The notes beneath the pieces are model-generated. The model ran no database searches. It was not told the origin of the DNA and saw nothing but the letters and a program-made list of their open reading frames with translations. The translations under genes were made by a program, and so were the position numbers. Positions 33,606-52,620 of a stretch of 52,621 nt of DNA are shown piece by piece. Source of the DNA: Candidatus Omnitrophota bacterium (GTDB lineage Bacteria > Omnitrophota > Omnitrophia > Omnitrophales > Aquincolibacteriaceae); the NCBI GenBank assembly GCA_035352955.1, contig DAOPYQ010000012.1, forward strand, positions 1 through 52,621, given 5' to 3'. How positions within the stretch are numbered: position 1 is the stretch's first letter; the number at the start of each line of letters is the position of its first letter.

Positions 33606-34506
33606 AGTGGGCGTGGTGCGCGGCGGTCTTTCGGCCGAACGCCGCATTTCGCTTCGCTCCGGCCGTGCCGTTACCCGGGCGCTTCGGCGGATCGGTGTTC
33701 CTGTGGTTCCTATCGATCCCGCAGACCGTACGGTGTTCTCAAGGAAAGTCCGCGAAGCGGACCTGCTTTTTATCGCGCTACACGGAAGCGGGGGAGAGGA
33801 CGGTTCCATTCAGGCAAAACTCGAACGGCAAAGGATCCTTTTCACGGGTTCCCCCTCGGTGGCGTGCCGGAGGAGTTTCGACAAGCTGATCAGCAAACGG
33901 CATTTTGAACGTCTCGGGATCCCGACGCCGGAGTACAAGGTGATCGACCGGAAGAATTGGCGCACGGTGGCTGCGCGTTTTCCGGTGCCTTATTTTGTAA
34001 AGCCTCTTGATGGGGGCTCAAGCCAGGGCGTTTTCCTGGTTGAAGATTTCCGGAATTCCGCCGAAAAACTAAGACGGTCTATTTTGCGGTTCGGAAGGCT
34101 GCTGATCGAGAAACGGATCGTCGGGCGGGAGCTTACGGCGGGCCTTCTTGGCGACTTGAAGCTTCCGGTGGTCGAGGTCCGGCCTTCGCGGCCCTTCTAC
34201 GATTACAAAGCCAAATATACGGCGGGGATGACGGTCTACGAAGTTCCCGCAAAGATCCCGGCGATGGTGGCCCGGAAGATCCAGAACATTGCGTGGCGTG
34301 TCTACCGAGGCCTCGGGCTCCGCGGATTTTCAAGGGTGGATGTCATGTTGGACCGGAAGAATCGTCCTTATGTCCTCGAGGTCAATAGTATCCCGGGGTT
34401 GACGGAATTCAGTCTGCTGCCGAAGGCGGCCCGTTCGATCGGGATCGGTTTCGAAGAACTTTGTTTGCGTGTTTTGCAGGACGCCTGGAAACGGCGAAAA
34501 AAATAA
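33553..34506 (+). CDS. ddl: D-alanine--D-alanine ligase
   Basis: KVGVVRGGLSAERRISLRSG N-terminus and ATP-grasp motifs (VKPLDGGSSQGV, EVNSIPGLT). The start is uncertain: ATG 33553 overlaps murB by 53 nt, and the alternative GTG 33607 lies 2 nt after the murB stop. Confidence 0.88.
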   Translation: MQPALLCNPKYASFRKIKVGVVRGGLSAERRISLRSGRAVTRALRRIGVPVVPIDPADRTVFSRKVREADLLFIALHGSGGEDGSIQAKLERQRILFTGSPSVACRRSFDKLISKRHFERLGIPTPEYKVIDRKNWRTVAARFPVPYFVKPLDGGSSQGVFLVEDFRNSAEKLRRSILRFGRLLIEKRIVGRELTAGLLGDLKLPVVEVRPSRPFYDYKAKYTAGMTVYEVPAKIPAMVARKIQNIAWRVYRGLGLRGFSRVDVMLDRKNRPYVLEVNSIPGLTEFSLLPKAARSIGIGFEELCLRVLQDAWKRRKK

Positions 34507-34515
34507 AAGGGAACC

Positions 34516-35331
34516 ATGAGCAAAAAGAGATTTAAAAAAGGGAAGAAAGGCGGATTTTTTTCAGCCATCGGTGGATTATTCCGCGGGATCGGGTGGTTGC
34601 TCTGGAAAGCGTTGCCGCTCGCTCTGATCGTAGGCCTTATCGTGTTCGCGGGTTTCGAGGTGCGGCGGGCCCTGTATGCCGACCGGTTCCTTCGGGTCCA
34701 GGAACTCAAGATCGTTCCTCCCGATGTGCTGTCCCCGCAGAGCATCCGTACCCTGGAAGAAAAGATCCTCAATAAGAATATCCTGCTGCTCGATCTCCGG
34801 AAGATCGCCGCCCAGATTGAGCTCGGGCCCGGCGCGCAGAATGTGCGCGTGGTACGTGAAATGCCCGCGACCGTTCGCGTTGAGATCCAGAAACGCAAGC
34901 CTATCGCCAACGTTCAACTGAAGGAAGGCGGCGCCTACGCGATCGTGGCGGAGGATGGTGTCATCATCGACGCCAAGAAGGAATCCGATCCTGCCTGGAT
35001 CCTGATCGAAGACCGCAGCGAGCCCGTCAAGGAACCGAAGATCGGGTTGCGGATCCAGAATAAGGGATTCCCGGAAGCCCTTCGTTTTATGAAGGTCTAC
35101 CGGAAGCATGAGCTTGCCCGTCGTGAGACCGTGACCCGTATCAGCCTCGACCCGTATGGGAACGTGACCGTACGTCTCGGGGAGGGCCCGGATTTCCAAC
35201 TCGGCCGGAAACCTTCGGAGCGACTTTCGTATCTTGTTAAAGCCCTTTATCTTTTTGAAACGGAACCCCGCGAGAATATTGAATATATGGACCTCCAATA
35301 TGACCGCATTGCAGTCAAAAGGAAACAATGA
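34516..35331 (+). CDS. ftsQ: Cell division protein FtsQ (POTRA-containing)
   Basis: Basic N-terminus, a single TM segment (LLWKALPLALIVGLIVFAGF) and a POTRA-like beta domain. Lies between ddl and ftsA. Confidence 0.8.
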   Translation: MSKKRFKKGKKGGFFSAIGGLFRGIGWLLWKALPLALIVGLIVFAGFEVRRALYADRFLRVQELKIVPPDVLSPQSIRTLEEKILNKNILLLDLRKIAAQIELGPGAQNVRVVREMPATVRVEIQKRKPIANVQLKEGGAYAIVAEDGVIIDAKKESDPAWILIEDRSEPVKEPKIGLRIQNKGFPEALRFMKVYRKHELARRETVTRISLDPYGNVTVRLGEGPDFQLGRKPSERLSYLVKALYLFETEPRENIEYMDLQYDRIAVKRKQ

Positions 35332-36581
35332 CCCCTATCGCAAACGATCTGAAGAACCAGTGCGTTGTCATCTATATCGGTACCCGCAAGGTTGTCGCGG
35401 TCCTGGGGGAGACGGGCGGAAGTCACCCGAGGGTCCTCAAGATAGAGGAAGTCTTTTCGCCCGAAGGCTTTGAAAGGGGGCTCGTTTGCAATCTCCAAGG
35501 CGCGAGCACTTCCCTCGAGAAACTTTTGAACGCGTTGTTGCCGCCCGAAGCCTGGGAACAGGTCCCGGTCTATGTGGTGCTCGGGAGCAGTGGGTTCCGG
35601 ATGTACCGGTTCGCGAGTTGCGAATATTATTCACCCGAACGGCGCACGATCAGTTCCCATGAAGTCCAGTCCGTGGTCCAGCAGACGCGCAATGTCGCGA
35701 CCTTGCCTCTCACGGAATCGATTTTGCAGGCGATCCCGGAATCTTTCCTCGTCAACGACATGCCGGCTGTGCACAATCCCGTGGGGCTTGAGGCCGAACG
35801 GTTGGGCGTAACGCTCCAGATCTATACGATGGAGTTCCAGAACTTTCGCAATATCGCAAAGGTCTTCGAAACGCTCGACCTGGAAGTCGAGGGATATTTT
35901 CCGAAGACCCTTCCTCTTTCGGAAGCCGTCCTGAGCGACGCGGAAAAGCAGGAAGGCGTGATGATTATTGATATTGCTGATGATGCGACCCAACTGGTGC
36001 TTTGGAAGAACGGTCTGCTGGCGGGTGTGCGGACCCTCCCGGTGGGGGGGCATGAACTGACCCGGTGTCTTGCCCAGGACTGGAATATCGAGGACCGGGA
36101 CGCGGAGAAGGTGAAGGAAAATTTTGCGACGCTGGATGTCCGGGAGCTTCAGAGCGACGGGCTTGTCCCGCTCGTTCTACGCAACGAGAAGGTCCAGCAG
36201 TCGATCCCCCGCAGGGAATTTCTCGAAAAATTCTTCAAGCATGCCCACGGGTGGATGGCGAAGATCCTTCAGGAATCCGACACCTTCATGCAGGAGCAGA
36301 AGATCCGTCACCCGCACGTGCTTTTCACCGGCGGGGCGGTCATGACCGAAGGGTTTTTGGAATGGGTCCAGAAGGAATTTTCGCGTGACGGGAAGATCGG
36401 GCTTACGCATTTCGTCGATGCTCCGCAGGAGACCGTCCGGGATGCTTCGATGGCGCCGGCGCTCGGAATGTTCCGTTGGGTCATGGTCCGCGAACGCGCC
36501 CACGAAGCCCTTTTCACCCCGCGCGGTCTGGTCGCGAAGACCGTTGCCGCTGCGCGTGCTTGGTTCGCAAACTACTTCTAA
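35328..36581 (+). CDS. ftsA: Cell division protein FtsA (actin-like ATPase)
   Basis: Actin-fold similarity along the whole length. C-terminal amphipathic membrane-targeting helix (AAARAWFANYF). ATGA overlap with ftsQ. Confidence 0.9.
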   Translation: MTPIANDLKNQCVVIYIGTRKVVAVLGETGGSHPRVLKIEEVFSPEGFERGLVCNLQGASTSLEKLLNALLPPEAWEQVPVYVVLGSSGFRMYRFASCEYYSPERRTISSHEVQSVVQQTRNVATLPLTESILQAIPESFLVNDMPAVHNPVGLEAERLGVTLQIYTMEFQNFRNIAKVFETLDLEVEGYFPKTLPLSEAVLSDAEKQEGVMIIDIADDATQLVLWKNGLLAGVRTLPVGGHELTRCLAQDWNIEDRDAEKVKENFATLDVRELQSDGLVPLVLRNEKVQQSIPRREFLEKFFKHAHGWMAKILQESDTFMQEQKIRHPHVLFTGGAVMTEGFLEWVQKEFSRDGKIGLTHFVDAPQETVRDASMAPALGMFRWVMVRERAHEALFTPRGLVAKTVAAARAWFANYF

Positions 36582-42184: not shown

Positions 42185-44314
42185 ATGACTTCCGAATTAT
42201 CCCTCACCGCCGGATTGAATCCCACGCAGAAAGAGGCCGTCACCTGGCCTCCGCAACGGCCGCTTTTGATCCTGGCCGGAGCGGGGAGCGGGAAGACGCG
42301 CATCCTCACGCACCGCATCGCCTACCTGATCTCGTGCGGCGTGCCGGCGTTCCATATCCTCGGCGTGACATTTACCAATAAGGCTGCCGCGGAAATGCGC
42401 CTCCGTATCGAGAAGCTCGTTTCCCAGCAGGTCTGGATCAGTACGTTCCACTCGACCTGCCTGCGCATTCTCCGGATGGACGGGGCGGCGATCGAGATCG
42501 ACCGCAGTTTTATCATCTACGACGAATACGACCAGCTGGTGATCATCAAGGAATGTATCGCGGAGCTCGGGCTGAACGAAAAACAGGTCCATCCGAAAGG
42601 CGTGCGCGAAGAGATCTCCCGCGCGAAGGATTATCTCGTGACGGCGTTCCAGTATGCGGGGAAGGCGACGGATCTTTATGCGCAGCAGGTGGCGCGCGTT
42701 TATCAGCTTTATGAGCAGAAAATGAAAAAGCTCAAGGCCTGTGATTTTGGCGACCTGATCATGAAGACGGTCATTCTTTTCGATCTCTGCCCCGAAGTGC
42801 TCAAGACCTGGCAGGACCGGTTCCAGCATATCCTGATCGACGAATACCAGGACACGAATCACGCGCAGTACCGGCTTGTGAAACTCCTGGCATCGGCGCG
42901 GCGTCAGATCACCGTTGTGGGCGATCCGGACCAGTCCATTTATGGCTGGCGCGGGGCGGACATCAAGAACATCCTGAACTTCGAGACCGATTATCCCGAT
43001 TCCGGCAGTATCCGGATGGAGCAGAATTACCGTTCCACGTCCGTGATCCTTGACGCGGCGAACCATTTGATCAAGAACAACGCGATGCGCAAACCCAAGG
43101 CGCTTTGGACCGAGAAGAAGGGCGGTGAGAAGATCGAGCTTTTCAACGCCTCCGATGAGATCGAAGAAGCCCGGTATGCGGTGCGGAACGTCCTGAAATA
43201 TAAAATGCAGGGCCGGACGTTTGCCGAGCAGGTCATTTTTTACCGTGTGCATGCGCAGTCGCGCGTCCTTGAAGATGAGCTGATGCGGGCGAACATTCCC
43301 TACAAGATCGTCGGCGGCACGCGCTTCTACGACCGCCGGGAGATCAAGGACGTGATCGCGTACTTGCGCCTTGTGGCATACCCGCACGATGAGATCAGTC
43401 TGAAGCGCATCATCAATGTCCCGCCGCGCGGGATCGGGAAAAAGGCGATGGAAGCGCTTGAGAGCGCAACGCACACCCCACGGGGGCTGGGTACAAATCG
43501 CCCTGACACTCAACGCACAACGGAAAAGCAAGATTCGTTGCCCGTTGAGCGTAGTACGTTGAGCGCCCCGGAGGCGACATGGGATTCCGTTCTGGCCAAT
43601 GTTCAGTCCGTTGACGGTCTGACGCCCAAAGTCAAAAAAACGCTCGCGGATTTTCACGCTTGGCTGACGAAGCTTCGGAAATCCCAGCGCGGGATGAAAA
43701 TCCGGGACATTCTCGAGAAGATCCTCGAAGATACCGGTTATGTGGCGGCGCTTGAAGCCGAGCGGACGACGGAGGCGCAGGCGAGGCTCGAGAATATCGA
43801 GGAATTTTTCAGCGTGATCGAAGATCATGAGGAGCGGTTCGTAGAAGTGCCGGACGGCAAAGAGACCGGCCAGTCCCGGCTCGAGCATTTTCTCGAATCA
43901 ATCGAACTTGTGACCGACCTTGACGCGTGGGACCAGGGCACGAACGTTCTCACACTTATGACGCTTCATACCGCAAAGGGCCTGGAATTCCCGATCGTGT
44001 TTATGGTCGGGTTGGAGGAGGGGATCTTTCCTCACGTGAATTCCTACGCCGGATCTTCCGAAGAGATCGAAGAGGAACGGCGGCTTTGCTACGTCGGTGT
44101 CACGCGCGCCCGCGAAAAACTGCACCTGTCTTACACCATCCAGCGCCGGCTTTACGGTGCGGTCCATCACAACCTGCCGTCCCGGTTCCTCAACGAAGTC
44201 CCATCCCATTTGTACGACGCCCGGACCCTTTCCGGGTACGGCGGCGGGAGTGATGACGATTTCCCCGACGACGATCCTTCCTCCATCCACGACCCCGCCA
44301 TCGAGTTCGATTAG
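42185..44314 (+). CDS. uvrD: ATP-dependent DNA helicase UvrD/PcrA (SF1)
   Basis: Motif I AGAGSGKT, motif II ILIDEYQDTN, VGDPDQSIYGWRGA, QNYRS, TLHTAKGLEF and YVGVTRAR. Acidic C-terminal tail. Confidence 0.95.
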   Translation: MTSELSLTAGLNPTQKEAVTWPPQRPLLILAGAGSGKTRILTHRIAYLISCGVPAFHILGVTFTNKAAAEMRLRIEKLVSQQVWISTFHSTCLRILRMDGAAIEIDRSFIIYDEYDQLVIIKECIAELGLNEKQVHPKGVREEISRAKDYLVTAFQYAGKATDLYAQQVARVYQLYEQKMKKLKACDFGDLIMKTVILFDLCPEVLKTWQDRFQHILIDEYQDTNHAQYRLVKLLASARRQITVVGDPDQSIYGWRGADIKNILNFETDYPDSGSIRMEQNYRSTSVILDAANHLIKNNAMRKPKALWTEKKGGEKIELFNASDEIEEARYAVRNVLKYKMQGRTFAEQVIFYRVHAQSRVLEDELMRANIPYKIVGGTRFYDRREIKDVIAYLRLVAYPHDEISLKRIINVPPRGIGKKAMEALESATHTPRGLGTNRPDTQRTTEKQDSLPVERSTLSAPEATWDSVLANVQSVDGLTPKVKKTLADFHAWLTKLRKSQRGMKIRDILEKILEDTGYVAALEAERTTEAQARLENIEEFFSVIEDHEERFVEVPDGKETGQSRLEHFLESIELVTDLDAWDQGTNVLTLMTLHTAKGLEFPIVFMVGLEEGIFPHVNSYAGSSEEIEEERRLCYVGVTRAREKLHLSYTIQRRLYGAVHHNLPSRFLNEVPSHLYDARTLSGYGGGSDDDFPDDDPSSIHDPAIEFD

Positions 44315-44410
44315 GCTCGCCTGGTCTTTTTGCTCTCCTTCTTCTTCGTTTGAGGTGCCCAAGATGCGCATCTCATCTCCGGGGTTGCTCGGCGCTATTT
44401 TCGGATACCT

Positions 44411-44589
44411 CCATTTGAACATCTGAAAATAGTTTAAAATCCATCTAGATTAATCCTATCTTGTTTGATATCAACAGGTTAAGATTGCTATATATTGCTA
44501 TAAATATTTGATATTCTATAGAGTATGAGCTATCTTTATTAGTGGATAGATAAAATAAACATACTAAAGATGTTAAACAATATCAAATT
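44411..44589 (+). promoter_or_regulatory. AT-rich leader/promoter region of the second giant gene, with three copies of a TTGATAT/ATATCAA motif and a candidate promoter TTGCTA-N16-TATAGA (44495-44522)
   Basis: There is a sharp drop in GC relative to the flanks. A 10-bp palindrome TTGATATCAA sits at 44465-44474. TTTGATATT (44507-44515) and its exact reverse complement AATATCAAA (44579-44587) are also present, the latter abutting the ATG. TTGCTATA occurs as a direct repeat. Confidence 0.4.
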
Positions 44590-47500
44590 ATGACAAACTC
44601 TGCTAAAAAAATCATAAGTCTAGTCACGATTTTTTGCTTTGCGATGACGCAAAGCGTGACAGCTTATCCCGGTGCCGGAATTGATATTGTCCGCCCCGCG
44701 GAAGTTCCGTCATTTCTTCAGATCGATATCCCGTCCGAACTTGCGACACTCGACGGACTTTTCGAAGCGCCGGTGAGCCCGGACCCGCGGTTGATCCTTC
44801 ACATCCAGAATGCGCACGCGAATTACGGGGCCCAGGAAAAGATCAAACAGCTCTTGCAGTACCTTGAACGGACTTATGCCATCAGGACCATTTTTGTCGA
44901 AGGCGCGTCCGAAGACCTCAATCCCGACTACTTGAAAATGTTCCCGGACCGCGAACGCAATCTCAAGCTTGCGGATTTCCTCGCCAAACAGGGGGAGCTG
45001 ACGGGAGCGGAACTTTTCATTCTCGAGGAGAATGAAAAGCGGGATGGAGGAGGGAGGATGGAGGAGGGAGTAAAAACAGGTTCGTCGCCATCCGCCATCC
45101 GCCATCCGATATCCAGAGTTACGCCGAAGGCGCACGGTATCGAGAACGCCGCGCTGTACCGCCAGAATTACGAAGCGCTCAAAAAAGTTTTCGGCAATGA
45201 AGCCACGGTGAACCGTTATCTCCTAGGCTTCGAGGCGCGGCTTGACGGTTTGGCGTCCAAGGTCTTTGGTGCGGATCTTCGCAAACTTCTCGGGGAGTGG
45301 AAAAAATTCGAAAAAGGGAACCGCGAGTTTATGCCGTACATCCGCGCCCTTGCCACGGAGGCGAAGCGTATCCTCGGGTCGGACTTGGAGAGCCTGCTTT
45401 CGCAGATCGAATGGCCGCAGATCACGCGGATCCTCGTGCTTCAGACCATGGAAAAAGACCTGAACGTCGAAAAGGGACTTGCCGAGAAAGGCGAGCTCAT
45501 CCGATTCCTCAAGGAGAAGAAGGCCTCCCCCCGGCTTATTGCCGCGATCGAGAACTTTCAGGACCAGCGCATGAATGTCCCGCGTGGGGAAACGGGACAG
45601 AACGCCGGCCCTATTCAACCGCGCGACCTCATGGAACAGCTCGTGAACGAAGCCGGCCCCAAGGGGTTCTATTTTTACAATTATCCGAACTTCAGCCTCT
45701 ATGCCGGGTACATCATCCTGAAAAGCGAACTCGATCCCAAAGGCCTTTTCGACGAGATCCGGCTCCTGTTCACGCGGATCATGGACAAACTGGCGGTGAG
45801 CGAGCGGCAGAAGACCCTGCTCGGGCTTTACCGCGATGAGGAACTTGTCCGCAAGCTCCTCAACCTCGAGTTGACCCGTAAGAACTGGCAGGACGTCCTC
45901 AGCAGGGGGACGCTCCTGTCGATGGATTCCCTGGTGACGCGTCTCAAGGACATTGGGACTGCCGTCGCCACGGAATCCAATCTTCCGCTTACGAATTTCG
46001 AGACGAAGAAGGTGAACCCCAAGTTCCGCAGTGAGGTGATGGACGTTCAGGCCGCCGCGTACGATTTTTACGAGGCCGCGCGCAAACGCGAAGAGGTCTT
46101 TTACGAAAAGATCGATTCCGTGATGCGGGGCGGCGCGCTCACGAAAGCGGTCCTGATCACCGGCGGTTTTCACACCGACGGCATCACCGAGCTTCTCCGC
46201 GAGCACGAGATCAGTTACGGCATCCTTACTCCGCGACTTTCCGAAAAGGGTGATGAACATCTTTACCGCGCGGTCATGTTGCAGAACACCGACCGTCCTT
46301 TCAGCATTTCATATCTCGAACAATCGGTAAAAGAAGGTCCGGTGGTGAACCAGCCCAATCCTGCCGGAGCGCTTGGGACTTTGGTTAATGCCATCGCGGC
46401 GACCGACCGCAAAGAGATCCGCCAGGCGGTGGAGATTTTTAATGCTTCGACCTCGGCCCAATTGAACAATCTCCGCCTTGAACGCCGGTCCGAGGATTCC
46501 CGTGGCCGTCCGACTTACCAAGTGGTATCTCGCACTGGAGAGCGCATGACCTCTGACAGACCGGGGGGAGGGATAGATCAGCCCTCGAATGTTTTGATCT
46601 CTCAGGATGTATTGACCGATGTGCTTGCCGATGCGGCTCGCGGTGCGACGCCGGTAATAGCCACTCCGGCGGTGACAACCGCCGTTGGTCGCATAGAACG
46701 ATTGGTAACGCCGGCCAGTCCTGAAGCTGTATCTCCCAGTGCCGCCAGCGACGTGGTTCGACAAGCGCTTATTAACGAAGCTCAAACGGCAGGTGTCACG
46801 CCGGCACAGCTTGCTGCTGCGGTTGTATCCGTCATGCCCGCTGTGTCTACCTCTGGGACCGATTTGGGTCCTGTGGATGTTTCACCCCAGGCCACTTCAA
46901 CCTCCGGTGTTTCGGCAGAACCGGCCTTTTTAAGGGAGGAAAACGGATTGCCGGAGGGTATCGAAGTCCCGATCGTCATGATTCCGCTTAAACGTTTTGT
47001 GGTGACGCTGGACGGACCGCCCGCGGCTGGGAAGACCACGACAAGCCGCATGGTTGTCAGGCGGTTGCATGAACAGGGGATCCCGATGGCGTATGTGGAC
47101 AGCGGGTTCGTGTACCGCGCCATGGCGGCGAGTTTGATGAAGACCTTCGGCGATGTTTCAACGATCTCTGCGGTTCTTAATGATTCCGGGCGTCTGACCG
47201 CATTTCTCAAAGAAGCGAATATCCGGCTGCAGCTCGATGAGTGGGCGGATCCGGATGAATCGATGCGCGTCTTTATGGGGGACAGCCAGGCACCGGTTCC
47301 TTTGGAAGCTTTGAGAAACGAAGGCCTCAATCCGGTCCTCAAACTATTACGCCGCCGGGAGGTCCATCAATATGTCTTTCAAAGAATCCGCAACGCGGGA
47401 GAGGACAAAAACCTGATGGCGGTCGGACGAAACATGGGGACGCTTGTTTTTCCGGATGCTACAGGGCCCAAGATCTATCTGACCGTGTCGCAAGAGGAAC

Positions 47501-50500
47501 GGGCGAAGCGGCGGAAAGTCGGTCTTGAGGCTATCCAGCGCCGCGATGCCTCCAATCTGGAAGACCCGGTGGCGCCGTTGATCATTCCCCGTGGCGCTGT
47601 GGAGATCGATACGACGGGCGGGTATGACGGCGTATTGGAAAAATCACGGGACGCGACCGTCGAGAAGATATTCGGACTCATGAGTTCCGCCGCCAGCGCG
47701 GCTGCTACGGAAACGGCCGGGTCGTCCCGCCAGGAAGCCCGCGCCGAGAATCGTGCAACTCCCGCCCGCTCTGAAAACCACGAAACTCCTCCGGCCGCGT
47801 CGCCGGTATCTGGACGCGCGCCCGCCGCAGACGAAGCCGGCCGCACGGAAGCGCGACAAAATGACGACGGACAAGCCCGGGCGAAGGACGGAGATGATTT
47901 AGAAAGACGTGTTGCGGCAATGACCGATATGCGGGGTAAATTAGAGCTTCTCATTCGGCATTTGTTCATTGGTGATAAATATTTCCGAGACTTTTTGCCC
48001 GGTGAGATTGCATTTTTGAAAGAGGCTAAAAAATTTTACAAAGTTGATCCCGGGCAACTTAACGCGGCATATCGGGCCGCGGATATTCTGTTCGATCTAA
48101 TACAAAATCATCCCGACGAAGCAGAATCAGCAAAATCGCTGATGTTACAAATCGCAGCCCACATGGGGGGGGGACAGGAGGGTAATGTCAAACAGCTTTT
48201 GGAAGAGTTTGTTTTTAATGAAGGCCGTCGATTCATGTCCGTGGATGAGTTGGAGAATATAGCCCGCTACCACGCTATGTATAACGTACCGAATTATTCG
48301 ATGTTTATTCTCGTCGGGGATCCCGGCGAAATTACGGATGAAATTCGCATCAGCCAAATTCTTGCGGGAATACCGCAATACGGCGCAGAGGTCCTGCTTA
48401 TTTTTCGGTATCCGCAATATCGAACAGGACTGGGGGGCGGTGGCGGCGCCGCTTTGCCTGATGAAGGATTGGTGCTGTTGCCCGAGGGGTATCCTTCGGA
48501 AAAGACTGTCTATAAAACCAGGATACAAGGAGTGGGGCGGATGGGTGCGGAATTTATTGACGTTCCGGCAACGCGCGCCGTTGTCCGTGCGCGTCTTGCA
48601 GCCGGAAAAATCAGTATGAGGTTCGATCTTGCGCATCAGAAAGCGATTGCGGACCGGACGGAAAAAGCTTTGGACGCGATCGAGGCATGGCAGAATGAAT
48701 CGAAGCCGAAAGACGCTCCTGCTGCCGCCATGGCGCCGGCTCAAGACCGCGCGGAACGCCGCACGGCTGGGGAGGAGGAAACGGTTGGGCCGGATTTTGA
48801 TCCGGTCGTTCAGAACTATTGGCTGGAGAACAATCTTGGGGATGATGCCGCGCGCCGCGCTGCCGCGAAATTCTATTATGAGGACGGCAGAGACAAAGTG
48901 ATGCAAAAAAACGGCGTTACGGCCGCGATGTTCTCCGTGTTCATGAAGGTCATGAATTTCCGGGGACCGGATGCTGCGGTCAAAACTTTTACGGCCATAG
49001 ACGTGCTCCGGTCGTTTCGGATCTCTTATCCGGGGATGAGAGTATCGGTCATGATCGAAATTCTTTCCCGGAATCATTTTGTTTTTGAAAAGCTCGGGAA
49101 TATCCCGGGGGCTATGCCGGAAAGTGTGTGGCAGGAGATCCAGGGTATTTTTGCGCGCGAAGGGTTTAAGGCCGGGGTTTTGCCGTCGGTCCGTCCGGAG
49201 GCTGCGGCTTCTGCGGAAAAATGGGATGGGAGTTCGGTCGAGGTTCATGGCCTGATCCCAGAGCCTGCGGCTCCTGCCGACGCGACACTGACGCAGGCAT
49301 CCCCCTCGGAAAATTGGGATAATAGTTCGGTCGAGGAAATATTGCAGCAGATCCTGCGTTCTCCGGATCCAGCGACGGTCATCAACGCCGGAGAATCTTT
49401 TTATCAGAGACTGGATCGCGGAGGCGTGGCGGTCAAAAGCGGTCCTCATACTTTCCTGATCTGGCGGCAGCCGCGTTCCGCCTTCGTGGATGGTTCCGGG
49501 GAGCTTGAAGCCGGTAAGGTCTATATGACACGCATGCGAAGCAACGGTCAGCACTCGAAAATCCGTAAGATCGAGCCGGACGTAAAAATGAAGGTCGGGA
49601 TTAACGGTCAGGAGATTGGATACGGTGACCTCAAGGGGTTCTACCCGACCGGTGGCTTTTCGTTCACGGTCCAGTCGCGGGAGCGGGAAAACCGTCCTCC
49701 CCGGATCGAAGTGGACGGTGTGTTCGGGGATCAGCGGGTCGAGTTTAATGGCCTGATCCTAGAGCCTGCGGCTTCTGCCGCCGCGACACCGATGCAGGAA
49801 TCCACCCCGGAAAATCGGGATGGGAGTCCGGTCGAGGTTAATGGCCTGATCTCAGAGCCTGCGGCTCCTGCCGACGCGACACTGACGCAGGCATCCCCCT
49901 CGGAAAATTGGGATAATAGTTCGGTCGAGGAAATATTGCAGCAGATCCTGCGTTCTCCGGATCCAGCGACGGTCATCAACGCCGGAGAATCTTTTTATCA
50001 GAGACTGGATCGCGGAGGCGTGGCGGTCAAAAGCGGTCCTCATACTTTCCTGATCTGGCGGCAGCCGCGCGTGGATAGTTTTCGGAAGCTTGAAGCCGGT
50101 AAGGTCTATATGGCACGCATGAAAAGCGACGGTCAGCCCTCGAGAATCCGTGAGATCAAGCCGGACGTGGAAATGAAGGTCGGGATTAACGGTGCGGAGG
50201 TTGTATACGGAGACCACGACGATACGTTCAACCCGACCAGTGGCTTTTCGTTCACGGTCCAGTCGCCGCCGCGGCAAGGCCGTCCTTCCCGGATCGTAGT
50301 GGGCGGTGTGGTCGAGGGTCAGCCGGTCAAGGTTCAAGGTCTGATCCCGGCGGCTCAAGACCGTGCTGAAAGACGTTCCGCAATTCCGGCATCACCCACT
50401 TCGGACACCGGGTCTCCGAAGTTGGTTGGAGCGAGTGCGGCCAAGCCGCGGTCGAAACTTGACCAGGCGTTCGATACTTTTTTTGCCGCTGCCGGAGCGT

Positions 50501-52620
50501 TTGACCCGATCCTGAGCCAGACGGTCGCCGCGGGAGATCCTAGGACCCTCGGAAAAACGGTGCGTATCTATCCTAATACGTTGGAAATGTCCGGAAACGA
50601 ATTGCAAGGGGTGACGGTGAAATCGGGCTCAACCCTTTTCCGCATTTTGTACACGGGGGGAATTTACGGAACGGTTTATTACCGTATGTCGACATTAGAT
50701 GTGGCCGGTAACGAAGTCATCGATCCGAAGATCCACTCGGCGGAAAGACAGGAGGGCAGCGACGCCTTGATCGTGAGGGATCTTTCCCAGGCCGTTGGCC
50801 TGCCGGACCCCAGGATGGCTCCGACCGTTGTTTCCGTAAAAACAGGAGGAGATCAGGAAGGCAGAACTTATTTTGAGATCAAAGACCGGAGCCCGAAGGG
50901 CGTCGAACTCCAGTGGTCGCGACGGCTAGGGACCGACCTCGAAGAAGTTAAAGAAAAGGTCAAGGTTCAGGCGGAAGCTTTGACGGGAAAACATGATCAA
51001 CTGCAAGCTGGGTTTCACTATTTTGGCGGTCCGGCTGCTGAGAATCCCGGGGCGGAAGCGGAAACAGTCACGGAATCTCCCGCAGCCCCTCCTGCCGTGT
51101 CGGCTATTAACCTTGAAGGCATTAACCCATTTCTTCTTGGGAGAAAGTCGTTGAAGGATGAAGGATCGGCCGAGGAAAACCTGCCGAATAATGGCTGGGA
51201 CGACCAAGAGGTGATAGGTTCTCAGACAGCTCAGACGGCTCCGACCGCTGTCACTGCCGGCCGGATGGAAAAACGCGCGGATGCGTACAGCGGGATGAGG
51301 GGGAAAGAAATTGCCGGCTATGCTGTGGTTTTATCGTTTTTCAATCCGGTCCTGTTCGTCGTGTTTTACTGGAATCTTCTGATGGCCGTCGGCGATAGAG
51401 TATCGCCCGCGACGGGGATTACCTTGTTGCTTGCGCCGCTTGCTGTTGTTGCCGTGGGCGCTTTGGTGGCTGGAGTGGCATTCCTGCCGATTCTTTTCAA
51501 GGAATCTCTTGCTGCGTTTTCCGGGGAGAAGACGAGTCTTGCCGGGTATCAGCAGATGGCGGAGAAGAAATTCTCAAATCTCCAAAGCGATGTGAAGGGC
51601 GATGCTCTCCTAGCCGGTGAATGGGCGACAGGGCGCTACCGGGTCCAGGTGGAGGATGATTCCGGGGCGGCCTACTATGATGTTAAACAGCGCAAGGTGG
51701 ATCTGGCGGGGCGAGAGATCCGGCCGCTTAAGATCTCTTCTTTCTACATGCAGATGACCTCGGTTTTTCGGTATACACTGATCCGGCGCACGCTCGGCTA
51801 TCATTACCAGGACCTCGCGGATCGCATGGAAACTGCTATAGGTCCTTCGCCTCTTCTCACGAGCCTGTTCTATCCGGTGTGGCTGATCTATAGCACATTT
51901 GAGACCCTGAGGTGCATGCGTTTCTATCTGCATCCTGTCACGCTCGGGTATGTCGGTATCGTGGGTGTTCTTTCTGTTTTTATCGGTCTCTTCGTGATCC
52001 CTGCGACTGTCGTTTATGAAATGGCAACCCGGGGTATCGGAAAAACGTCCCGGGACCTCAGCCATATCGTCCAATATGTTTTGAAAGGCCGGACGGTGCC
52101 GGAGGGAGAGCGGACGAGGCATGCAGGAGCTCTGTTGCCACGGAACCCGGTTCTTTACAATCTCGTGATGGCGACCCTGTGGAGCGTGGTCGGTATTCTG
52201 ACCGTCAATTTCATTTATGCAGCGCTCGGTGTCGGGAGCGCGGTCCTCTTTCCCGTGGCAGGGCGGGCGGTGGTTGCGGGGATGGCCTGGTTGTTCGGGT
52301 ACGTAATGAGCAAAGGCCGGCTGATGGAACAGATGAAAGATCACGAGTTTCGGAAAGGCCGTTTAGAAAGCCCCTCCTATGCAGCACCGGACACTAAGTC
52401 CGCCCGTCAGTCGGCACCTGCTAGGGGCGAGCGCGCGGAAAAGCGGGGAGGGGAGCGGTTGCTTGGCCGGGCGATGCTTCCTGCGATGGTCGCGTCTCTC
52501 TCTCTCTTCGCCATGGTGGCCAATGCCGCGGAGGAAAGTTTTTTTGGAAAGATCTTTTCGGTGGGTAAAGACGTTTCTGTGGGGGTGGTGGGCAGGCAGG
52601 GTGAAGATCGCGGTGACATG
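44590..52620 (+). CDS. Second giant protein, 3'-truncated by the window edge (at least 2677 aa): signal peptide, ChaN/Tiki-like N-terminal domain, low-complexity linkers, embedded cytidylate kinase-like domain, unknown helical region, tandem ~198-aa modules, C-terminal polytopic membrane region
   Basis: It is absent from the ORF track, which lists only start-to-stop ORFs. Hand translation of the frame with codon starts equal to 1 mod 3 found no stop from ATG 44590 to nt 52620. In-frame TAA at 44551 lies upstream, and 44590 is the first start after it. No track ORF in this interval is in this frame. The N-terminus MTNSAKKIISLVTIFCFAMTQSVTA is signal-like, and recognisable Cmk motifs lie in frame. 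The large antisense ORFs here are Arg/Pro-rich shadows. Confidence 0.85.
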   Translation, partial: MTNSAKKIISLVTIFCFAMTQSVTAYPGAGIDIVRPAEVPSFLQIDIPSELATLDGLFEAPVSPDPRLILHIQNAHANYGAQEKIKQLLQYLERTYAIRTIFVEGASEDLNPDYLKMFPDRERNLKLADFLAKQGELTGAELFILEENEKRDGGGRMEEGVKTGSSPSAIRHPISRVTPKAHGIENAALYRQNYEALKKVFGNEATVNRYLLGFEARLDGLASKVFGADLRKLLGEWKKFEKGNREFMPYIRALATEAKRILGSDLESLLSQIEWPQITRILVLQTMEKDLNVEKGLAEKGELIRFLKEKKASPRLIAAIENFQDQRMNVPRGETGQNAGPIQPRDLMEQLVNEAGPKGFYFYNYPNFSLYAGYIILKSELDPKGLFDEIRLLFTRIMDKLAVSERQKTLLGLYRDEELVRKLLNLELTRKNWQDVLSRGTLLSMDSLVTRLKDIGTAVATESNLPLTNFETKKVNPKFRSEVMDVQAAAYDFYEAARKREEVFYEKIDSVMRGGALTKAVLITGGFHTDGITELLREHEISYGILTPRLSEKGDEHLYRAVMLQNTDRPFSISYLEQSVKEGPVVNQPNPAGALGTLVNAIAATDRKEIRQAVEIFNASTSAQLNNLRLERRSEDSRGRPTYQVVSRTGERMTSDRPGGGIDQPSNVLISQDVLTDVLADAARGATPVIATPAVTTAVGRIERLVTPASPEAVSPSAASDVVRQALINEAQTAGVTPAQLAAAVVSVMPAVSTSGTDLGPVDVSPQATSTSGVSAEPAFLREENGLPEGIEVPIVMIPLKRFVVTLDGPPAAGKTTTSRMVVRRLHEQGIPMAYVDSGFVYRAMAASLMKTFGDVSTISAVLNDSGRLTAFLKEANIRLQLDEWADPDESMRVFMGDSQAPVPLEALRNEGLNPVLKLLRRREVHQYVFQRIRNAGEDKNLMAVGRNMGTLVFPDATGPKIYLTVSQEERAKRRKVGLEAIQRRDASNLEDPVAPLIIPRGAVEIDTTGGYDGVLEKSRDATVEKIFGLMSSAASAAATETAGSSRQEARAENRATPARSENHETPPAASPVSGRAPAADEAGRTEARQNDDGQARAKDGDDLERRVAAMTDMRGKLELLIRHLFIGDKYFRDFLPGEIAFLKEAKKFYKVDPGQLNAAYRAADILFDLIQNHPDEAESAKSLMLQIAAHMGGGQEGNVKQLLEEFVFNEGRRFMSVDELENIARYHAMYNVPNYSMFILVGDPGEITDEIRISQILAGIPQYGAEVLLIFRYPQYRTGLGGGGGAALPDEGLVLLPEGYPSEKTVYKTRIQGVGRMGAEFIDVPATRAVVRARLAAGKISMRFDLAHQKAIADRTEKALDAIEAWQNESKPKDAPAAAMAPAQDRAERRTAGEEETVGPDFDPVVQNYWLENNLGDDAARRAAAKFYYEDGRDKVMQKNGVTAAMFSVFMKVMNFRGPDAAVKTFTAIDVLRSFRISYPGMRVSVMIEILSRNHFVFEKLGNIPGAMPESVWQEIQGIFAREGFKAGVLPSVRPEAAASAEKWDGSSVEVHGLIPEPAAPADATLTQASPSENWDNSSVEEILQQILRSPDPATVINAGESFYQRLDRGGVAVKSGPHTFLIWRQPRSAFVDGSGELEAGKVYMTRMRSNGQHSKIRKIEPDVKMKVGINGQEIGYGDLKGFYPTGGFSFTVQSRERENRPPRIEVDGVFGDQRVEFNGLILEPAASAAATPMQESTPENRDGSPVEVNGLISEPAAPADATLTQASPSENWDNSSVEEILQQILRSPDPATVINAGESFYQRLDRGGVAVKSGPHTFLIWRQPRVDSFRKLEAGKVYMARMKSDGQPSRIREIKPDVEMKVGINGAEVVYGDHDDTFNPTSGFSFTVQSPPRQGRPSRIVVGGVVEGQPVKVQGLIPAAQDRAERRSAIPASPTSDTGSPKLVGASAAKPRSKLDQAFDTFFAAAGAFDPILSQTVAAGDPRTLGKTVRIYPNTLEMSGNELQGVTVKSGSTLFRILYTGGIYGTVYYRMSTLDVAGNEVIDPKIHSAERQEGSDALIVRDLSQAVGLPDPRMAPTVVSVKTGGDQEGRTYFEIKDRSPKGVELQWSRRLGTDLEEVKEKVKVQAEALTGKHDQLQAGFHYFGGPAAENPGAEAETVTESPAAPPAVSAINLEGINPFLLGRKSLKDEGSAEENLPNNGWDDQEVIGSQTAQTAPTAVTAGRMEKRADAYSGMRGKEIAGYAVVLSFFNPVLFVVFYWNLLMAVGDRVSPATGITLLLAPLAVVAVGALVAGVAFLPILFKESLAAFSGEKTSLAGYQQMAEKKFSNLQSDVKGDALLAGEWATGRYRVQVEDDSGAAYYDVKQRKVDLAGREIRPLKISSFYMQMTSVFRYTLIRRTLGYHYQDLADRMETAIGPSPLLTSLFYPVWLIYSTFETLRCMRFYLHPVTLGYVGIVGVLSVFIGLFVIPATVVYEMATRGIGKTSRDLSHIVQYVLKGRTVPEGERTRHAGALLPRNPVLYNLVMATLWSVVGILTVNFIYAALGVGSAVLFPVAGRAVVAGMAWLFGYVMSKGRLMEQMKDHEFRKGRLESPSYAAPDTKSARQSAPARGERAEKRGGERLLGRAMLPAMVASLSLFAMVANAAEESFFGKIFSVGKDVSVGVVGRQGEDRGDM
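45042..45107 (+). repeat. Short tandem repeats inside the giant ORF: GGATGGAGGAGGGA x2 (45042-45069), a 17-nt spacer, then GCCATCC x3 (45087-45107)
   Basis: Exact tandem copies read directly. The two arrays are partly complementary (GGATGG against CCATCC). The unit lengths, 14 and 7, are not multiples of 3. Confidence 0.85.
46987..47679 (+). other. Cytidylate kinase (Cmk)-like P-loop domain embedded in the giant ORF
   Basis: In-frame VVTLDGPPAAGKTTTSRMV, YVDSGFVYRAMA and AVGRNMGTLVFPDATGPKIYLTVSQEERAKRR match the Cmk signature pattern (DGPxGxGK[ST], DSGxxYR, GRDxGTVVFPDAxxKxxLxAxxExRAxRR). Confidence 0.75.
48165..48173 (+). repeat. Poly-G tract (G9) within the giant ORF
   Basis: catGGGGGGGGGac, read directly; it encodes M-G-G-G. 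Confidence 0.9.
49261..49475 (+). repeat. Copy A of a 215-bp perfectly identical intragenic direct repeat (part of a 594-bp tandem module)
   Basis: Identical base for base to 49855-50069. Near-identity (3-4 mismatches) extends upstream to about 49213. Flanking parts of the module are clearly diverged and include a 9-nt indel. Confidence 0.92.
49855..50069 (+). repeat. Copy B of the 215-bp perfectly identical intragenic direct repeat
   Basis: The offset of exactly 594 bp (198 codons) from copy A preserves the reading frame. The repeat is also visible in the track as the identical peptide string shared by antisense ORFs 48145..49554 and 49852..50358. Confidence 0.92.

Follow-up and report, generated by a model that had tools for sequence, protein, structure and literature searches.

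A cytidylate kinase-like domain as a cargo unit of a giant modular protein in Omnitrophota

A contig of Candidatus Omnitrophota (DAOPYQ010000012.1) ends in a giant reading frame which encloses a domain similar to cytidylate kinase (Cmk). The questions are whether this domain is a working enzyme, for which substrate, and what it does in a protein beginning with a signal-peptide-like segment. The stretch analysed, 52,621 nt long, is called the window; its features are listed in Table 1.

Giant gene and its protein family

The frame is open on the forward strand from 44554 to 52620 (last complete codon in the window), giving 2689 codons without a stop, and its codon-position GC is of the coding type along the entire length. 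As stated in the preliminary description, the Cmk-like domain lies in this uninterrupted frame without start or stop of its own. The gene probably starts at ATG 44590; in the public gene call, P0001 (2655 aa), the start is GTG 44656, which would drop the conserved N-terminal hydrophobic segment. The contig end truncates the gene, and the C-module and remaining cargo are therefore outside the sequence seen.

Hydrophobic segments of the protein are at residues 8-26 and in a cluster at residues 2241-2569. The hydrophobic core of the N-terminal one has 12 residues (12-13 in the family), is preceded by KK and ends in V-T-A. Across the family, Lys/Arg residues average 3.0 ahead of the core vs 0.34 behind it, and the small-x-small end site is conserved. 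In the predicted structure, residues 3-22 form a helix and a disordered stretch comes next. Judged from sequence, the N-terminus looks like a cleavable Sec signal peptide in N-in orientation. It was previously suggested that an uncleaved anchor keeps the kinase cytoplasmic, but the short core, the charge bias and the small-x-small site fit a cleavable signal peptide; a cytoplasmic kinase could result by another route, processing into units. The export signal and the downstream transmembrane (TM) cluster described earlier are both present, but the cluster is not at the true C-terminus, as the contig end cuts the gene.

The N-module has an alpha/beta core with a helical insertion of about 330 residues (model pLDDT 81.8), and no match to it was found in Pfam, PDB or BFVD. 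About 65 Omnitrophota proteins match it with 40-66% identity, and it can be detected in over 110, at the N-terminus in every case. Residues Q73, H76, E104, G105, E389, R500, G525, G526, and H528 are invariant in alignment A2.

The common signal peptide and the N-terminal module of about 600 aa occur in more than 150 proteins of Omnitrophota, 1000-5100 aa in length; complete members share a C-module with an -SA or -AA terminus, and unrelated enzyme domains lie between the two modules. Cargo-free members of about 1000 residues exist. In 120 matches, similarity to the query covers only the N-terminal 21-29%, and their Pfam content differs. All loci in GTDB representative genomes belong to Omnitrophota, as do nearly all source-named matches; a few of the latter are from Elusimicrobia or Verrucomicrobiae. 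With high confidence, the family is built of a Sec-type signal peptide, an N-module of about 600 residues, none to many unrelated domain-sized units, and, in complete members, a conserved C-module.

Gene order at locus L002 is that of the window, gcvT-gcvH-gcvP1-gcvP2-lipB-(124 aa)-uvrD-giant gene, with uvrD likewise directly followed by the giant gene. Its giant protein P0002, the syntenic ortholog, carries Fic and ART-PolyVal domains and no Cmk, and shares with the window protein only the N-module and residues 1378-1531. Protein P0008 carries NUDIX and Fic; cargo of other members includes response-regulator receivers, HPr, HATPase_c, GlnE, and glycolytic enzymes. The Cmk domain is thus one exchangeable enzyme unit among the many that serve as cargo in this large Omnitrophota family, and not the one-off fusion assumed at first: three further members (P0241, P0249, and P0254) have embedded Cmk-like domains.

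Table 1. Features of the giant gene and its surroundings in the window
Feature	Position (nt)	Strand	Remarks
uvrD/pcrA	42185-44314		upstream neighbour of giant gene; Pfam assignment
AT-rich intergenic, presumed promoter region	44315..44589	+	upstream of giant gene; sequence reading
Giant ORF	44590..52620	+	at least 2677 codons without stop, ended by contig end
Signal-peptide-like N-terminus, MTNSAKKIISLVTIFCFAMTQSVTA followed by YPGAG	44590..44667	+	conserved in homologs
Conserved N-module	44668..46530	+	residues ~27-647; family-defining
Ala/Thr/Ser/Val/Pro-rich low-complexity linker	46531..46971	+	residues ~648-794, from translation
Cmk-like domain	46972..47709	+	residues ~795-1040; Pfam match proper 47002-47616
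Arg/Glu/Ala-rich linker with three R-x-E-x-R sites (RQEAR, RAENR, RTEAR)	47728..47856	+	downstream boundary of Cmk unit
Residues 1378-1531	48721..49182	+	sole cargo segment common with syntenic ortholog P0002, 47% identity
In-frame tandem duplication	49214..50347	+	period 585-594 nt (~198 codons); repeat families D1-D4; parts 98% identical, remainder 84-86%
Hydrophobic TM-like helix cluster	51310..52296	+	residues ~2241-2569; RMEKR at residue 2225 just before
RAEKR, then internal signal-peptide-like stretch GGERLLGRAMLPAMVASLSLFAMVANA followed by AEE	52432..52530	+	residues 2615-2647

Cmk-like domain and its active site

The Cmk signature is present in the order reported before, VVTLDGPPAAGKTTT, YVDSGFVYRAMA, and AVGRNMGTLVFPDA..KIYLTVSQEERAKRR. 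The profile check proposed with it gave a clear match: Pfam Cytidylate_kin (PF02224) covers residues 805-1009 with profile positions 1-194 of 211, scoring 80.1 bits (E 2.4e-22) when the whole protein is searched and 87.2 bits (E 1.7e-24) when only the excised stretch is, the cut-off being 26 bits. CMP kinases were the top matches in a PDB sequence search (E 6e-13 to 1e-9). An AlphaFold2 model of 46960-47700 has pLDDT 90.3 and pTM 0.87, and its best PDB fold matches, 21 out of 21, are CMP kinases with TM-scores of 0.67-0.85 (target-length normalised), although the input alignment consisted of canonical Cmks and biases the model towards that fold. The Cmk unit, approximately residues 630-1047, lacks its own sorting signal. 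Low-complexity flanks in the same frame are present, but with about 145 codons on the upstream side and about 80 on the downstream side they are shorter than the hundreds per side first described. We are highly confident that 47002-47616 encodes a genuine, well-folded domain of the bacterial CMP kinase fold, which serves as an interchangeable cargo unit of a long modular Omnitrophota protein.

Active-site residues are numbered as in Escherichia coli Cmk, and their roles, described in PMC3603445, were transferred from the E. coli and Yersinia enzymes by alignment at about 30% identity. The P-loop GPPAAGKT is intact in the window copy, and K18, S36, R41, R92, R131, R157, R181, and D182 are kept. 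Not all nucleotide-binding residues are lost, as K18 and the phosphate-binding arginines remain. Five CMP contacts are altered: S101L, R110H, D132N, D185N, and R188D. The Asp-to-Asn change in the GRD motif noticed earlier is real (D132N), and the five changes together lend more weight to the earlier idea that substrate handling is altered. All these positions, kept or altered, are conserved in eight out of eight stand-alone Cmks aligned and in E. coli Cmk. In Yersinia Cmk, the R110A, R131A, and R188A mutants lose activity, with R110A and R188A abolishing it (PMC3603445). S101, R110, and D132 are lost in all four embedded copies, with replacements from a limited set (N or Q at 132; H, Q, or L at 110), and the window copy additionally lacks D185 and R188.

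The domain thus keeps the ATP-binding P-loop and every alignable phosphate-binding or catalytic residue, while the residues which presumably read cytosine and pentose are replaced. From this pattern, it is predicted to be an active ATP-dependent phosphotransferase that no longer uses CMP as its acceptor, and we give this prediction an even chance. Asn or Gln at D132 combined with His or Gln at R110 would swap hydrogen-bond donors and acceptors in the sense that uracil-type bases require; with D185N and R188D in addition, the true acceptor is uncertain.

The closest relative of the window domain, that of P0241, is itself embedded in a giant protein. Its P-loop is damaged (G17R) and R157 is lost, and this copy may be decaying. 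The Cytidylate_kin domain of P0249 (186 bits) has a PRK/uridine kinase domain behind it, which is a nucleotide-metabolism context.

Punctuation motif and possible processing

Units of the family proteins are separated by a short motif, R-S-E-x-R, which occurs 2-19 times per protein vs 0.0-0.3 expected from shuffles. The 504 sites are spaced 253 residues apart in the median, and their flanks are not conserved. The codons of the motif vary synonymously, and selection is therefore on the peptide. In the window the motif is degenerate, R-x-E-x-R without Ser; there are nine in the giant ORF vs none in the remaining proteins of the window (13,625 residues). Variants at residues 607 and 629 stand just upstream of the linker 46531..46971. 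In P0074, the PGI domain (3389-3896, 572 bits) is flanked by RSEVR at 3331 and 3946; RSEAR at residue 2479 lies at the edge of a TIM match (2474-2701), and the motif is thus not always outside Pfam domains. Where hydrophobic segments cluster, the motif stands ahead of the first one in 22% of cases vs 9.5% at random positions (p = 6e-5), and hydrophobic segments come after only about 7% of motifs. Textbook internal signal peptides are found directly behind it, such as that after RAEKR at window residues 2615-2647, a pattern seen across the family. Some units open right behind the motif with signal, lipoprotein-like or twin-arginine-like peptides of their own; other motif-delimited units are typical cytoplasmic enzymes.

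The motif and the internal signal peptides suggest a polyprotein. The units look like autonomous proteins, with their own signals or as cytoplasmic enzymes, and a polyprotein model is therefore preferred. The giant polypeptide would be cut at or near the R-S-E-x-R motifs as candidate cleavage sites, the signals carried by each released unit would decide its destination, and the Cmk unit, which has none, would act in the cytoplasm, where ATP is available. Such processing is put forward tentatively, at somewhat below even chances. The combined statement that excludes the processing step, a modular cargo unit carrying an active kinase of changed specificity, stands evenly balanced. If the polypeptide stays uncut, the signal peptide would export the N-module and the Cmk unit to the ATP-free side, and a dead domain or a prey-directed role becomes more likely.

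Alternative explanations and known systems

An uncut polypeptide is the basis of one alternative, in which the Sec signal exports the N-module and signal-less cargo including Cmk as a prey- or host-directed enzyme platform, whose enzymes work at the cell surface or inside a host cell that has been lysed or penetrated. The cleavable-type signal peptide conserved across the family agrees with this, as do the absence of internal TM segments in 61 of 123 members, cargo differing even at the syntenic locus, and the conflict-type domains of P0002 (ART-PolyVal and Fic) and P0008 (NUDIX and Fic). Published interpretations of giant proteins from Omnitrophota favour effectors acting outside the cell, and in the literature these bacteria are thought to be host-dependent or predatory. 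However, there is no ATP outside the cell; receivers, HPr, HATPase_c, GlnE, and glycolytic enzymes make sense only in the producer cytoplasm, and internal signal or twin-arginine-like peptides behind the motif would be pointless if everything was already outside. In the first internal TM segments, the flank richer in Lys/Arg is more often that on the N side (40 vs 18, p = 0.004), a difference confounded by the motif itself, and neither an immunity gene nor a dedicated secretion locus adjoins the window gene, upstream of which lie uvrD and gcv genes. We hold this export rather unlikely. The domain could instead be a pseudo-enzyme or spacer, meaning a non-catalytic nucleotide-binding, regulatory or structural module or decaying cargo. 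Five CMP contacts are replaced, two of them at positions with inactive alanine mutants, the score is just 80-87 bits vs 186 bits in P0249, the closest relative P0241 also lacks P-loop G17 and R157, and the syntenic ortholog dispenses with the domain. Survival of Walker A with K18, R41, R92, R131, R157, R181, and D182 at about 30-35% identity is, on the other hand, unexpected in neutral decay, the model is confidently folded, and the limited replacements at S101, R110, and D132 in all four copies look like a directed change of specificity, not random loss. A pseudo-enzyme is accordingly regarded as unlikely.

The domain is unlikely to be the housekeeping Cmk of the cell, and its being the sole (d)CMP kinase of the organism, fused to a membrane protein, is very improbable. 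Curated NCBIfam families of Cmk fusions exist and match it partially, and Omnitrophota genomes are reduced according to the literature. No second cmk-like sequence was found in the 52.6-kb window, which says little, as 52 kb is a small fraction of a genome. The scores are far under the equivalog cut-offs, with 70-77 bits vs 135.55 for TIGR00017 and 44-79 bits vs 524-953 for the fusion families; moreover, the cytosine and pentose contacts are lost and the domain is absent from the positional ortholog of a related genome. Least probable, to the point of being nearly dismissed, is an assembly chimera or indel error joining a stand-alone cmk to its neighbours. The contig is metagenomic with the gene running past its end, and an SD-like GGGAGG with TTG (codon 787) stands 18 codons ahead of the P-loop strand, but SD-plus-start sites are at chance level (10 in the ORF vs 7.7 +/- 3.0 in codon shuffles). 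The unbroken 8-kb frame with its coding-type GC, the recurrence of this architecture across well over 100 independent assemblies, and the three other giant proteins with embedded Cmk-like domains, the closest relative among them, also speak against an artefact.

In the literature consulted, neither the family layout nor the R-S-E-x-R motif was found described; giant multi-enzyme proteins of these bacteria as such have already been described. Among known systems, a housekeeping fusion would be comparable to the bifunctional PanC-Cmk, AroA-Cmk, and Cmk-Der proteins, and an exported enzyme platform to polymorphic toxins, MARTX toxins, and polyvalent proteins.

Identity and residue changes of the embedded Cmk-like domain

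The preliminary description had placed a cytidylate kinase (Cmk) signature inside the giant ORF, and this is borne out. The strings that it quoted are present, the Pfam profile Cytidylate_kin (PF02224) matches with 80.1 bits in the whole protein and 87.2 bits in the excised stretch against a cut-off of 26, and the structural model resembles CMP kinases. The signature and its embedding are thus real and not an artefact. When PDB sequences were searched with the domain, the best matches were CMP kinases (E 6e-13 and weaker). The AlphaFold2 model has a pLDDT of 90.3, and CMP kinases make up all of its 21 best PDB matches, with TM-scores of 0.67–0.85 by target; the input alignment consisted of canonical Cmks, so the model leans to the Cmk fold. 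The NCBIfam equivalog TIGR00017 scored 69.8 and 76.9 bits, below its cut-off of 135.55, in agreement with a domain that is not a standard Cmk. Its identity to any stand-alone Cmk found is 36% or less. A word-index search returned stand-alone Cmks only, with 28–35% identity, and an exhaustive HMMER search of 1.84 billion representatives revealed three further giant proteins with embedded Cmk-like domains, namely P0241 (the best match overall), P0249, and P0254, all with the N-module of the protein family described below. No other cmk-like stretch was found within the window by tblastn with nine Cmks as queries. Independent translation of the Cmk unit was considered as well, and the SD-like site and TTG at codon 787 are explained by chance.

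The four embedded copies were aligned with E. coli Cmk, whose numbering is used here, and with eight stand-alone Cmks. The E. coli sequence used agrees with the fragments obtained in the PDB search. In the window copy, the P-loop (Walker A, GPPAAGKT) is intact, and the phosphate-binding and catalytic residues K18, R41, R131, R157, R181, and D182 are all conserved. The cytosine-recognition set of S36, R110, D132, and R188 is reduced to S36, with R110H, D132N, and R188D substitutions; the change of GRD to GRN had already been noticed and is present. Both pentose contacts are changed (S101L and D185N), S101 being such a contact in E. coli Cmk structures. S101 (replaced by L, G, A, and A), R110 (H, L, Q, and H), and D132 (N, N, Q, and N) are lost in four out of four embedded copies, and D185 (replaced by N) and R188 (D or S) also in the window copy and P0241, while all five residues are present in every stand-alone Cmk aligned. 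K18, R41, R92, R131, R181, and D182 are kept in all four copies, and R157 in all except P0241. The P-loop of P0241 is damaged (G17R), and some embedded copies may therefore be dying.

In Cmk, the cytosine is hydrogen-bonded by R110, D132, and S36, while R188 and D185 contact CDP, and R41 and R131 are phosphate binders; R110A, R131A, and R188A proteins are folded but inactive (Walker et al. 2012, PMC3603445). Since the phosphoryl-transfer residues have been retained at about 30% identity, and since a small choice of replacements has arisen in parallel at the base-reading positions, a changed acceptor is favoured over simple decay, and the domain most likely represents a putative phosphotransferase with altered acceptor. 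Replacement of D132 by Asn or Gln and of R110 by His or Gln would reverse the donor/acceptor pattern toward the need of uracil-type bases. A housekeeping CMP kinase is very unlikely. In P0249, a Cytidylate_kin domain (186 bits) is followed immediately by a PRK/uridine-kinase domain, a pairing that fits a role in nucleotide metabolism. In such a pair, one chain would cover two successive steps of pyrimidine salvage, although S101, R110, and D132 are missing from the Cmk copy of P0249 as well. Four independent embedded copies with the same base-reading residues changed and the catalytic ones kept amount to a natural experiment on the specificity of NMP kinases. Should the domain be inactive, the finding shrinks to a further divergent cargo domain of a protein class that has been described before.

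Positions of the features in the window, in the homologous proteins, and at the two compared loci
Feature	Nucleotides	Strand	Residues	Remark
Open giant frame	44554 to last full codon of window	+		2689 codons, 0 stops
First ATG of giant frame	44590	+		
Start of public gene call P0001	44656	+		GTG; 2655 aa
N-module	44668–46530	+		
Stretch modelled with AlphaFold2	46960–47700	+		Cmk-like domain
Cytidylate_kin match	47002–47616	+	805–1009	profile positions 1–194 of 211
R-x-E-x-R sites	46408, 46474, 47728, 47740, 47842, 48748, 50362, 51262, 52432	+	607, 629, 1047, 1051, 1085, 1387, 1925, 2225, 2615	RKEIR, RLERR, RQEAR, RAENR, RTEAR, RAERR (twice), RMEKR, RAEKR
In-frame tandem duplication	49214–50347	+		about 594 nt (198 codons)
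Possible third repeat copy		+	about 1960–2130	
Motif followed by signal peptide	52432–52530	+	2615–2647	
GH94 gene	4076–10999	+		2307 aa
tRNA-Leu(CAG)	17746–17830			
Longest smpB ORF	17752–18441	+		
Cell-wall/division cluster	23821–36581	+		murE-murF-mraY-murD-ftsW-murG-murC-ddl-ftsQ-ftsA
Cmk-like domain of P0241			4271–4512	protein of 5075 aa
Cmk-like domain of P0249			4060–4242	protein of 4775 aa
Cytidylate_kin and PRK pair of P0249			4070–4505	
Cmk-like domain of P0254			950–1127	protein of 5080 aa
PGI domain of P0074			3389–3896	572 bits
RSEVR sites of P0074			3331, 3946	
First family gene of L001	531–13193			4220 aa
Second family gene of L001	13520–21193			recorded product 5636 aa, extends past locus end
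Giant gene of L002 (P0002)	8001–15749			complete, 2582 residues

A modular protein family and its chromosomal setting

The search with the whole product of the giant ORF yielded 120 proteins of 1500–4700 residues, which matched only the first 21–29% of the query; the closer homologs are 40–66% identical over the matched part. Those with a named source are nearly all from Omnitrophota, with a few from Elusimicrobia; when the members from the profile search described below are included, the few named exceptions are Elusimicrobia or Verrucomicrobiae. The common part is always N-terminal and consists of a signal-peptide-like segment and an N-module of about 600 residues, while the Pfam domains of the cargo differ among the homologs and include HD, NUDIX, Fic, PRTase, HATPase_c, APH, GlnE, response-regulator receivers, HPr, PfkB, adenylate kinase, SecA, methyltransferases, aldolase with TIM and PGI, glycogen synthase, PPDK, and GDH. 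Invariant residues of the N-module are Q73, H76, E104, G105, E389, R500, G525, G526, and H528. The window protein begins accordingly with a signal peptide, followed by an N-module with Q73, H76, E104-G105, and G525-G526-x-H528. The AlphaFold model of this module has a pLDDT of 81.8, and no significant match to it was found in Pfam, in a profile search of PDB sequences, or with Foldseek against PDB and BFVD. When 25 members were checked in Pfam, one weak ChaN/Tiki match (PF04187, E 0.005) and eight weak STALD matches were obtained. The pattern of a strand-His, a strand-Glu, and GGxH, together with the weak ChaN/Tiki match, hints at a Tiki/ChaN/EreA-like hydrolase.

Most complete members end in a conserved C-terminal pattern closing with -SA or -AA; the window protein is cut by the contig end ahead of its C-terminus. 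A profile search added members of about 1000 residues (P0390–P0417), whose contigs reach 539 kb. These have no cargo and are made up of the N-module and a C-terminal part with -SA or -AA; P0411, with 1035 aa on a 539-kb contig, is an example. The giant forms look like this cargo-free core with units inserted between its two ends. Among GTDB species representatives, eight out of eight family loci are in Omnitrophota MAGs, and one genome has at least three family genes, two of them in tandem. The genome of the window is outside these representatives, and its assignment to Omnitrophota is based on synteny and on N-modules with 60–69% identity. At L001, a locus of one Omnitrophota MAG, two tandem family genes both begin with signal peptide and N-module, and the first of them encodes aldolase, TIM, and PGI domains. 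The PGI domain of L001 scores 572 bits and is as conserved as a working housekeeping enzyme.

Exchange of cargo is seen at L002 (GCA_964508905.1), where the gene order gcvT-gcvH-gcvP1-gcvP2-lipB-(124 aa)-uvrD-giant gene is that of the window. The N-module of its giant protein P0002 is 62% identical to that of the window protein, and beyond this module only residues 1378–1531 are in common. In P0002, the place of the Cmk-like domain is taken by a weak Fic match and an ART-PolyVal domain, and the Cmk-like domain is therefore dispensable cargo at this locus. Downstream of the L002 giant gene are genes for an acyltransferase, an Exo_endo_phos protein, an M48/M56 peptidase, and a Peptidase_MA_2/TPR protein. 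Within this modular family of Omnitrophota proteins, the Cmk-like domain is divergent cargo.

The window itself is ordinary chromosome. Its assigned genes, all on the plus strand, are maf, a polysaccharide deacetylase gene, prmA, lpd, the gene for a GH94 protein, a D-Ala-D-Ala carboxypeptidase gene, efp, smpB, the cell-wall/division cluster, gcvT, gcvP1, gcvP2, lipB, and uvrD/pcrA. All Pfam-assigned genes share this strand and the cumulative GC skew climbs monotonically across 52 kb, which is consistent with one replichore having strong gene co-orientation. The cluster is closed by ftsA with gcvT directly next; ftsZ is absent at its usual place and from all window ORFs scanned. The GH94 gene is a second very long gene, with supersandwich and catalytic domains within the final 750 residues of its product and about 1550 N-terminal residues without Pfam match. 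The tRNA-Leu(CAG) gene overlaps the 5' part of the longest smpB ORF. As the SmpB Pfam match begins only at residue 82 of this ORF, the true smpB start is probably downstream of the tRNA gene.

The giant gene is separated from uvrD by an AT-rich spacer of 275 nt, and codon-position GC is gene-like over its entire frame. The N-terminus read from the first ATG is MTNSAKKIISLVTIFCFAMTQSVTAYPGAG, a segment that the public gene call P0001 on the same contig would drop. Because homologs conserve this segment, the ATG is the better start. There is no other record of the exact product. Within the tandem duplication in the giant ORF, 262 nt are 98% identical and the remainder 84–86%, a pattern suggesting that the copies of an uncharacterised domain were either homogenised in part or duplicated not long ago. 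After these two there may be a third copy, less similar to them.

Candidate boundary motif, internal signal peptides, and topology

The motif R-S-E-x-R occurs 2–19 times per protein in the homologs, compared with 0.0–0.3 times in composition-preserving shuffles, and is 50–100 times commoner in family proteins than in shuffles. The 504 sites surveyed have a median spacing of 253 residues and their flanks are not conserved. The codons of the motif vary synonymously (CGN/AGR, TCN, GAR), from which it follows that the signal is at the level of the peptide; a DNA-level element such as a ribosome-binding or recombination site is ruled out by this variation and by the lack of AGGAG. Exact RSExR is absent from the visible 2677 residues of the window protein, which has nine sites of the degenerate form R-x-E-x-R with unit-like spacing, while none were found in 13,625 residues of 30 other window proteins. 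The sites at residues 629 and 1047 bound the unit that holds the Cmk-like domain. In the homolog P0074, the PGI domain is flanked by RSEVR on both sides. A position strictly between Pfam domains holds for this PGI domain and not cleanly for TIM, where a site is at the edge of the match. R-S-E-x-R may be regarded as a candidate unit boundary or processing site.

The motif precedes the first hydrophobic segment of a cluster by 40 residues or fewer in 26 out of 120 cases, compared with 9.5% at random positions (p = 6e-5). Textbook signal peptides beginning immediately behind the motif account for many of these segments, as in RSEVRGKTAAFLLAIGLALANAVA followed by D. The same arrangement of motif and signal is near the visible end of the window protein (RAEKRGGERLLGRAMLPAMVASLSLFAMVANA followed by AEE), and P0007 has a twin-arginine-like SRRSFLKLLGAAAGVAV after NRSEMR. 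Signal peptides in mid-polypeptide directly after the motif were observed in the window protein, P0007, P0022, P0025, P0027, P0034, and P0035, and that of P0025 may be lipoprotein-like. Such internal signal peptides would make sense only as a new N-terminus or as internal start-transfer sequences. The Cmk unit has no internal signal peptide of its own.

The N-terminal segment had been considered a possible uncleaved anchor. Throughout the family, it has a hydrophobic core of 12–13 residues and a conserved small-x-small end, with a mean of 3.0 Lys/Arg before the core and 0.34 after it. This pattern does not fit such an anchor, and the segment behaves, as judged by its sequence, as a cleavable Sec signal. 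Half of the family is without any other TM-like segment; the window protein has, in its visible part, the signal peptide, at least four TM-like segments, and Cytidylate_kin as the one recognised Pfam family. The more basic flank of first internal TM segments is on the N side in 40 cases and on the C side in 18 (p = 0.004), a count confounded by the Arg-rich motif. As a test of topology the positive-inside analysis was set aside, as the N-terminus and the first internal TM segment disagree and the motif confounds the result.

An uncut chain would carry the Cmk unit across to the ATP-free side of the membrane. Against an intact exported chain stand the nature of much of the cargo, which is obligately cytoplasmic in kind (receivers, HPr, HATPase_c, GlnE, glycolysis), the internal signal peptides, which would be redundant in it, and the N-side basic flank of the first internal TM segments, motif-confounded as it is. 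The giant ORF could alternatively encode a polyprotein, in effect an operon fused into one frame, which would be cut at R-S-E-x-R (R-x-E-x-R in the window protein). The destination of each freed unit would depend on the signal that it carries itself, with export of the N-module and of units that have an internal signal peptide, and cytoplasmic retention of signal-less ones, the Cmk-fold domain among them. In the cytoplasm, this domain could serve as an NMP kinase whose base specificity has been shifted from cytosine to a different base by the coordinated R110H/Q and D132N/Q changes. The polyprotein model would reconcile the export signal, the cytoplasmic-type cargo, and the internal signal peptides, and is put forward as an unproven proposal. 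All of its parts taken together, from cutting at the motif and sorting by own signals to a cytoplasmic re-specified NMP kinase, form a possible but rather doubtful reading. If the polyprotein reading is true, Omnitrophota giant proteins would have their first candidate cleavage points in the motif sites, and the genes would represent a new mode of bacterial gene organisation.

Comparison with known systems

The bacterial (d)CMP kinase Cmk (PF02224, TIGR00017; E. coli structures 1CKE, 2CMK, and 1KDO) is free-standing and about 220 residues long, whereas the window domain is embedded downstream of a signal peptide. The predicted fold is the same, including the bacterial insert of the NMP-binding region. 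Walker A, D35-S36-G37, Y40-R41, R92, G130-R131, the LID motif EERAxRR, and R181-D182 are kept, while S101, R110, D132, D185, and R188 are replaced and the score is below the equivalog cut-off. An in-frame fusion of Cmk is shared with the bifunctional PanC-Cmk (NF010004), AroA-Cmk (NF008816), and Cmk-Der (NF007071), which are two-domain cytoplasmic enzymes with canonical Cmk. To these families the window protein matches by its Cmk part alone, with 44–79 bits against cut-offs of 524–953, and its Cmk partners are, unlike PanC, AroA, and Der, an uncharacterised N-module, linkers, repeats, and TM helices.

Omnitrophota, which are ultra-small, uncultured bacteria of wide distribution and probable host dependence, have very long multi-enzyme proteins whose cutting, membrane side, and evolution are recognised as puzzling. 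The family shares phylum, very long ORFs, and signal peptide and/or TM helices with the "Archaeovorins" (West-Roberts et al. 2023, bioRxiv 10.1101/2023.11.21.568195) and the "multi-enzyme metabolic clusters" (Nielsen & Lui 2026, bioRxiv 10.64898/2026.06.07.730766). Divergent cytoplasmic-type enzymes in one chain (glycolysis, kinases, NUDIX, HATPase_c, methyltransferases, response regulators) are likewise common to both, as is the puzzle of the membrane side, and cleavage into products was proposed for the published proteins. In West-Roberts et al. 2023, glycolytic domains are predicted to be extracellular with suspected mis-localisation, cleavage is proposed, and the cleavage points are stated as unknown. 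The published size classes start at 10,000 residues (Nielsen & Lui) or 30,000 residues (West-Roberts), compared with about 1000–5100 for this family among the matches listed. The window protein is probably outside this length class, the complete syntenic ortholog having 2582 residues and the window gene being cut at 2677 codons. The family has the class feature of signal peptide or TM helices combined with several enzyme families (PGI, TIM, PRTase, HATPase_c, NUDIX, Fic, and others). SecA-DEAD, C39 or S8 peptidase, HEAT, and dockerin domains are absent from the visible 2677 residues of the window protein, and no type II secretion or pilus locus is upstream of the giant gene, where gcvT/P, lipB, and uvrD are located.

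Enzyme domains inside Omnitrophota giant proteins are thus already published. In the giant-protein accounts consulted, no description was found of a scaffold of N- and C-module with a cargo-free form, of cargo exchange at a syntenic locus, of four embedded Cmk-like domains that lost base-reading residues in parallel, or of R-S-E-x-R with internal signal peptides after it; term searches of West-Roberts et al. 2023 and Nielsen & Lui 2026 gave no mention of cytidylate kinase, a common N- or C-module, or R-S-E-x-R. The window offers a tractable mid-sized example of the giant-protein phenomenon. With defined end modules, a cargo-free form of about 1000 residues, syntenic cargo exchange, and a five-residue boundary motif often followed by internal signals, processing is directly testable.

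Polymorphic toxins, MARTX toxins, and polyvalent proteins of phages and conjugative elements are built of conserved end modules and of enzymatic domains that vary strongly and are located between these modules or behind them, and their cargo is exchanged among close relatives. The family resembles them in its conserved ends, in variable cargo at one locus, and in the ART-PolyVal and Fic domains of the syntenic ortholog, ART-PolyVal (PF18760) being named after polyvalent proteins. Unlike in polymorphic toxins, much of the family cargo is of housekeeping type, and the location 3' of uvrD is in the chromosomal core genome. No toxin Pfam domain was found in the visible window protein, nor an immunity gene or dedicated secretion system among the upstream neighbours of the giant gene, which are housekeeping genes. 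Flavivirus polyproteins have internal signal sequences and are cut by host signal peptidase and a viral protease. The family genes, unlike those of viral polyproteins, are cellular and chromosomal, with unit content varying from gene to gene and cleavage that is hypothetical. As an analogy of mechanism only, the two are alike in one ORF with a string of unrelated units and a short conserved site between them, and in internal signal peptides that would send some units across the membrane and leave others in the cytoplasm.
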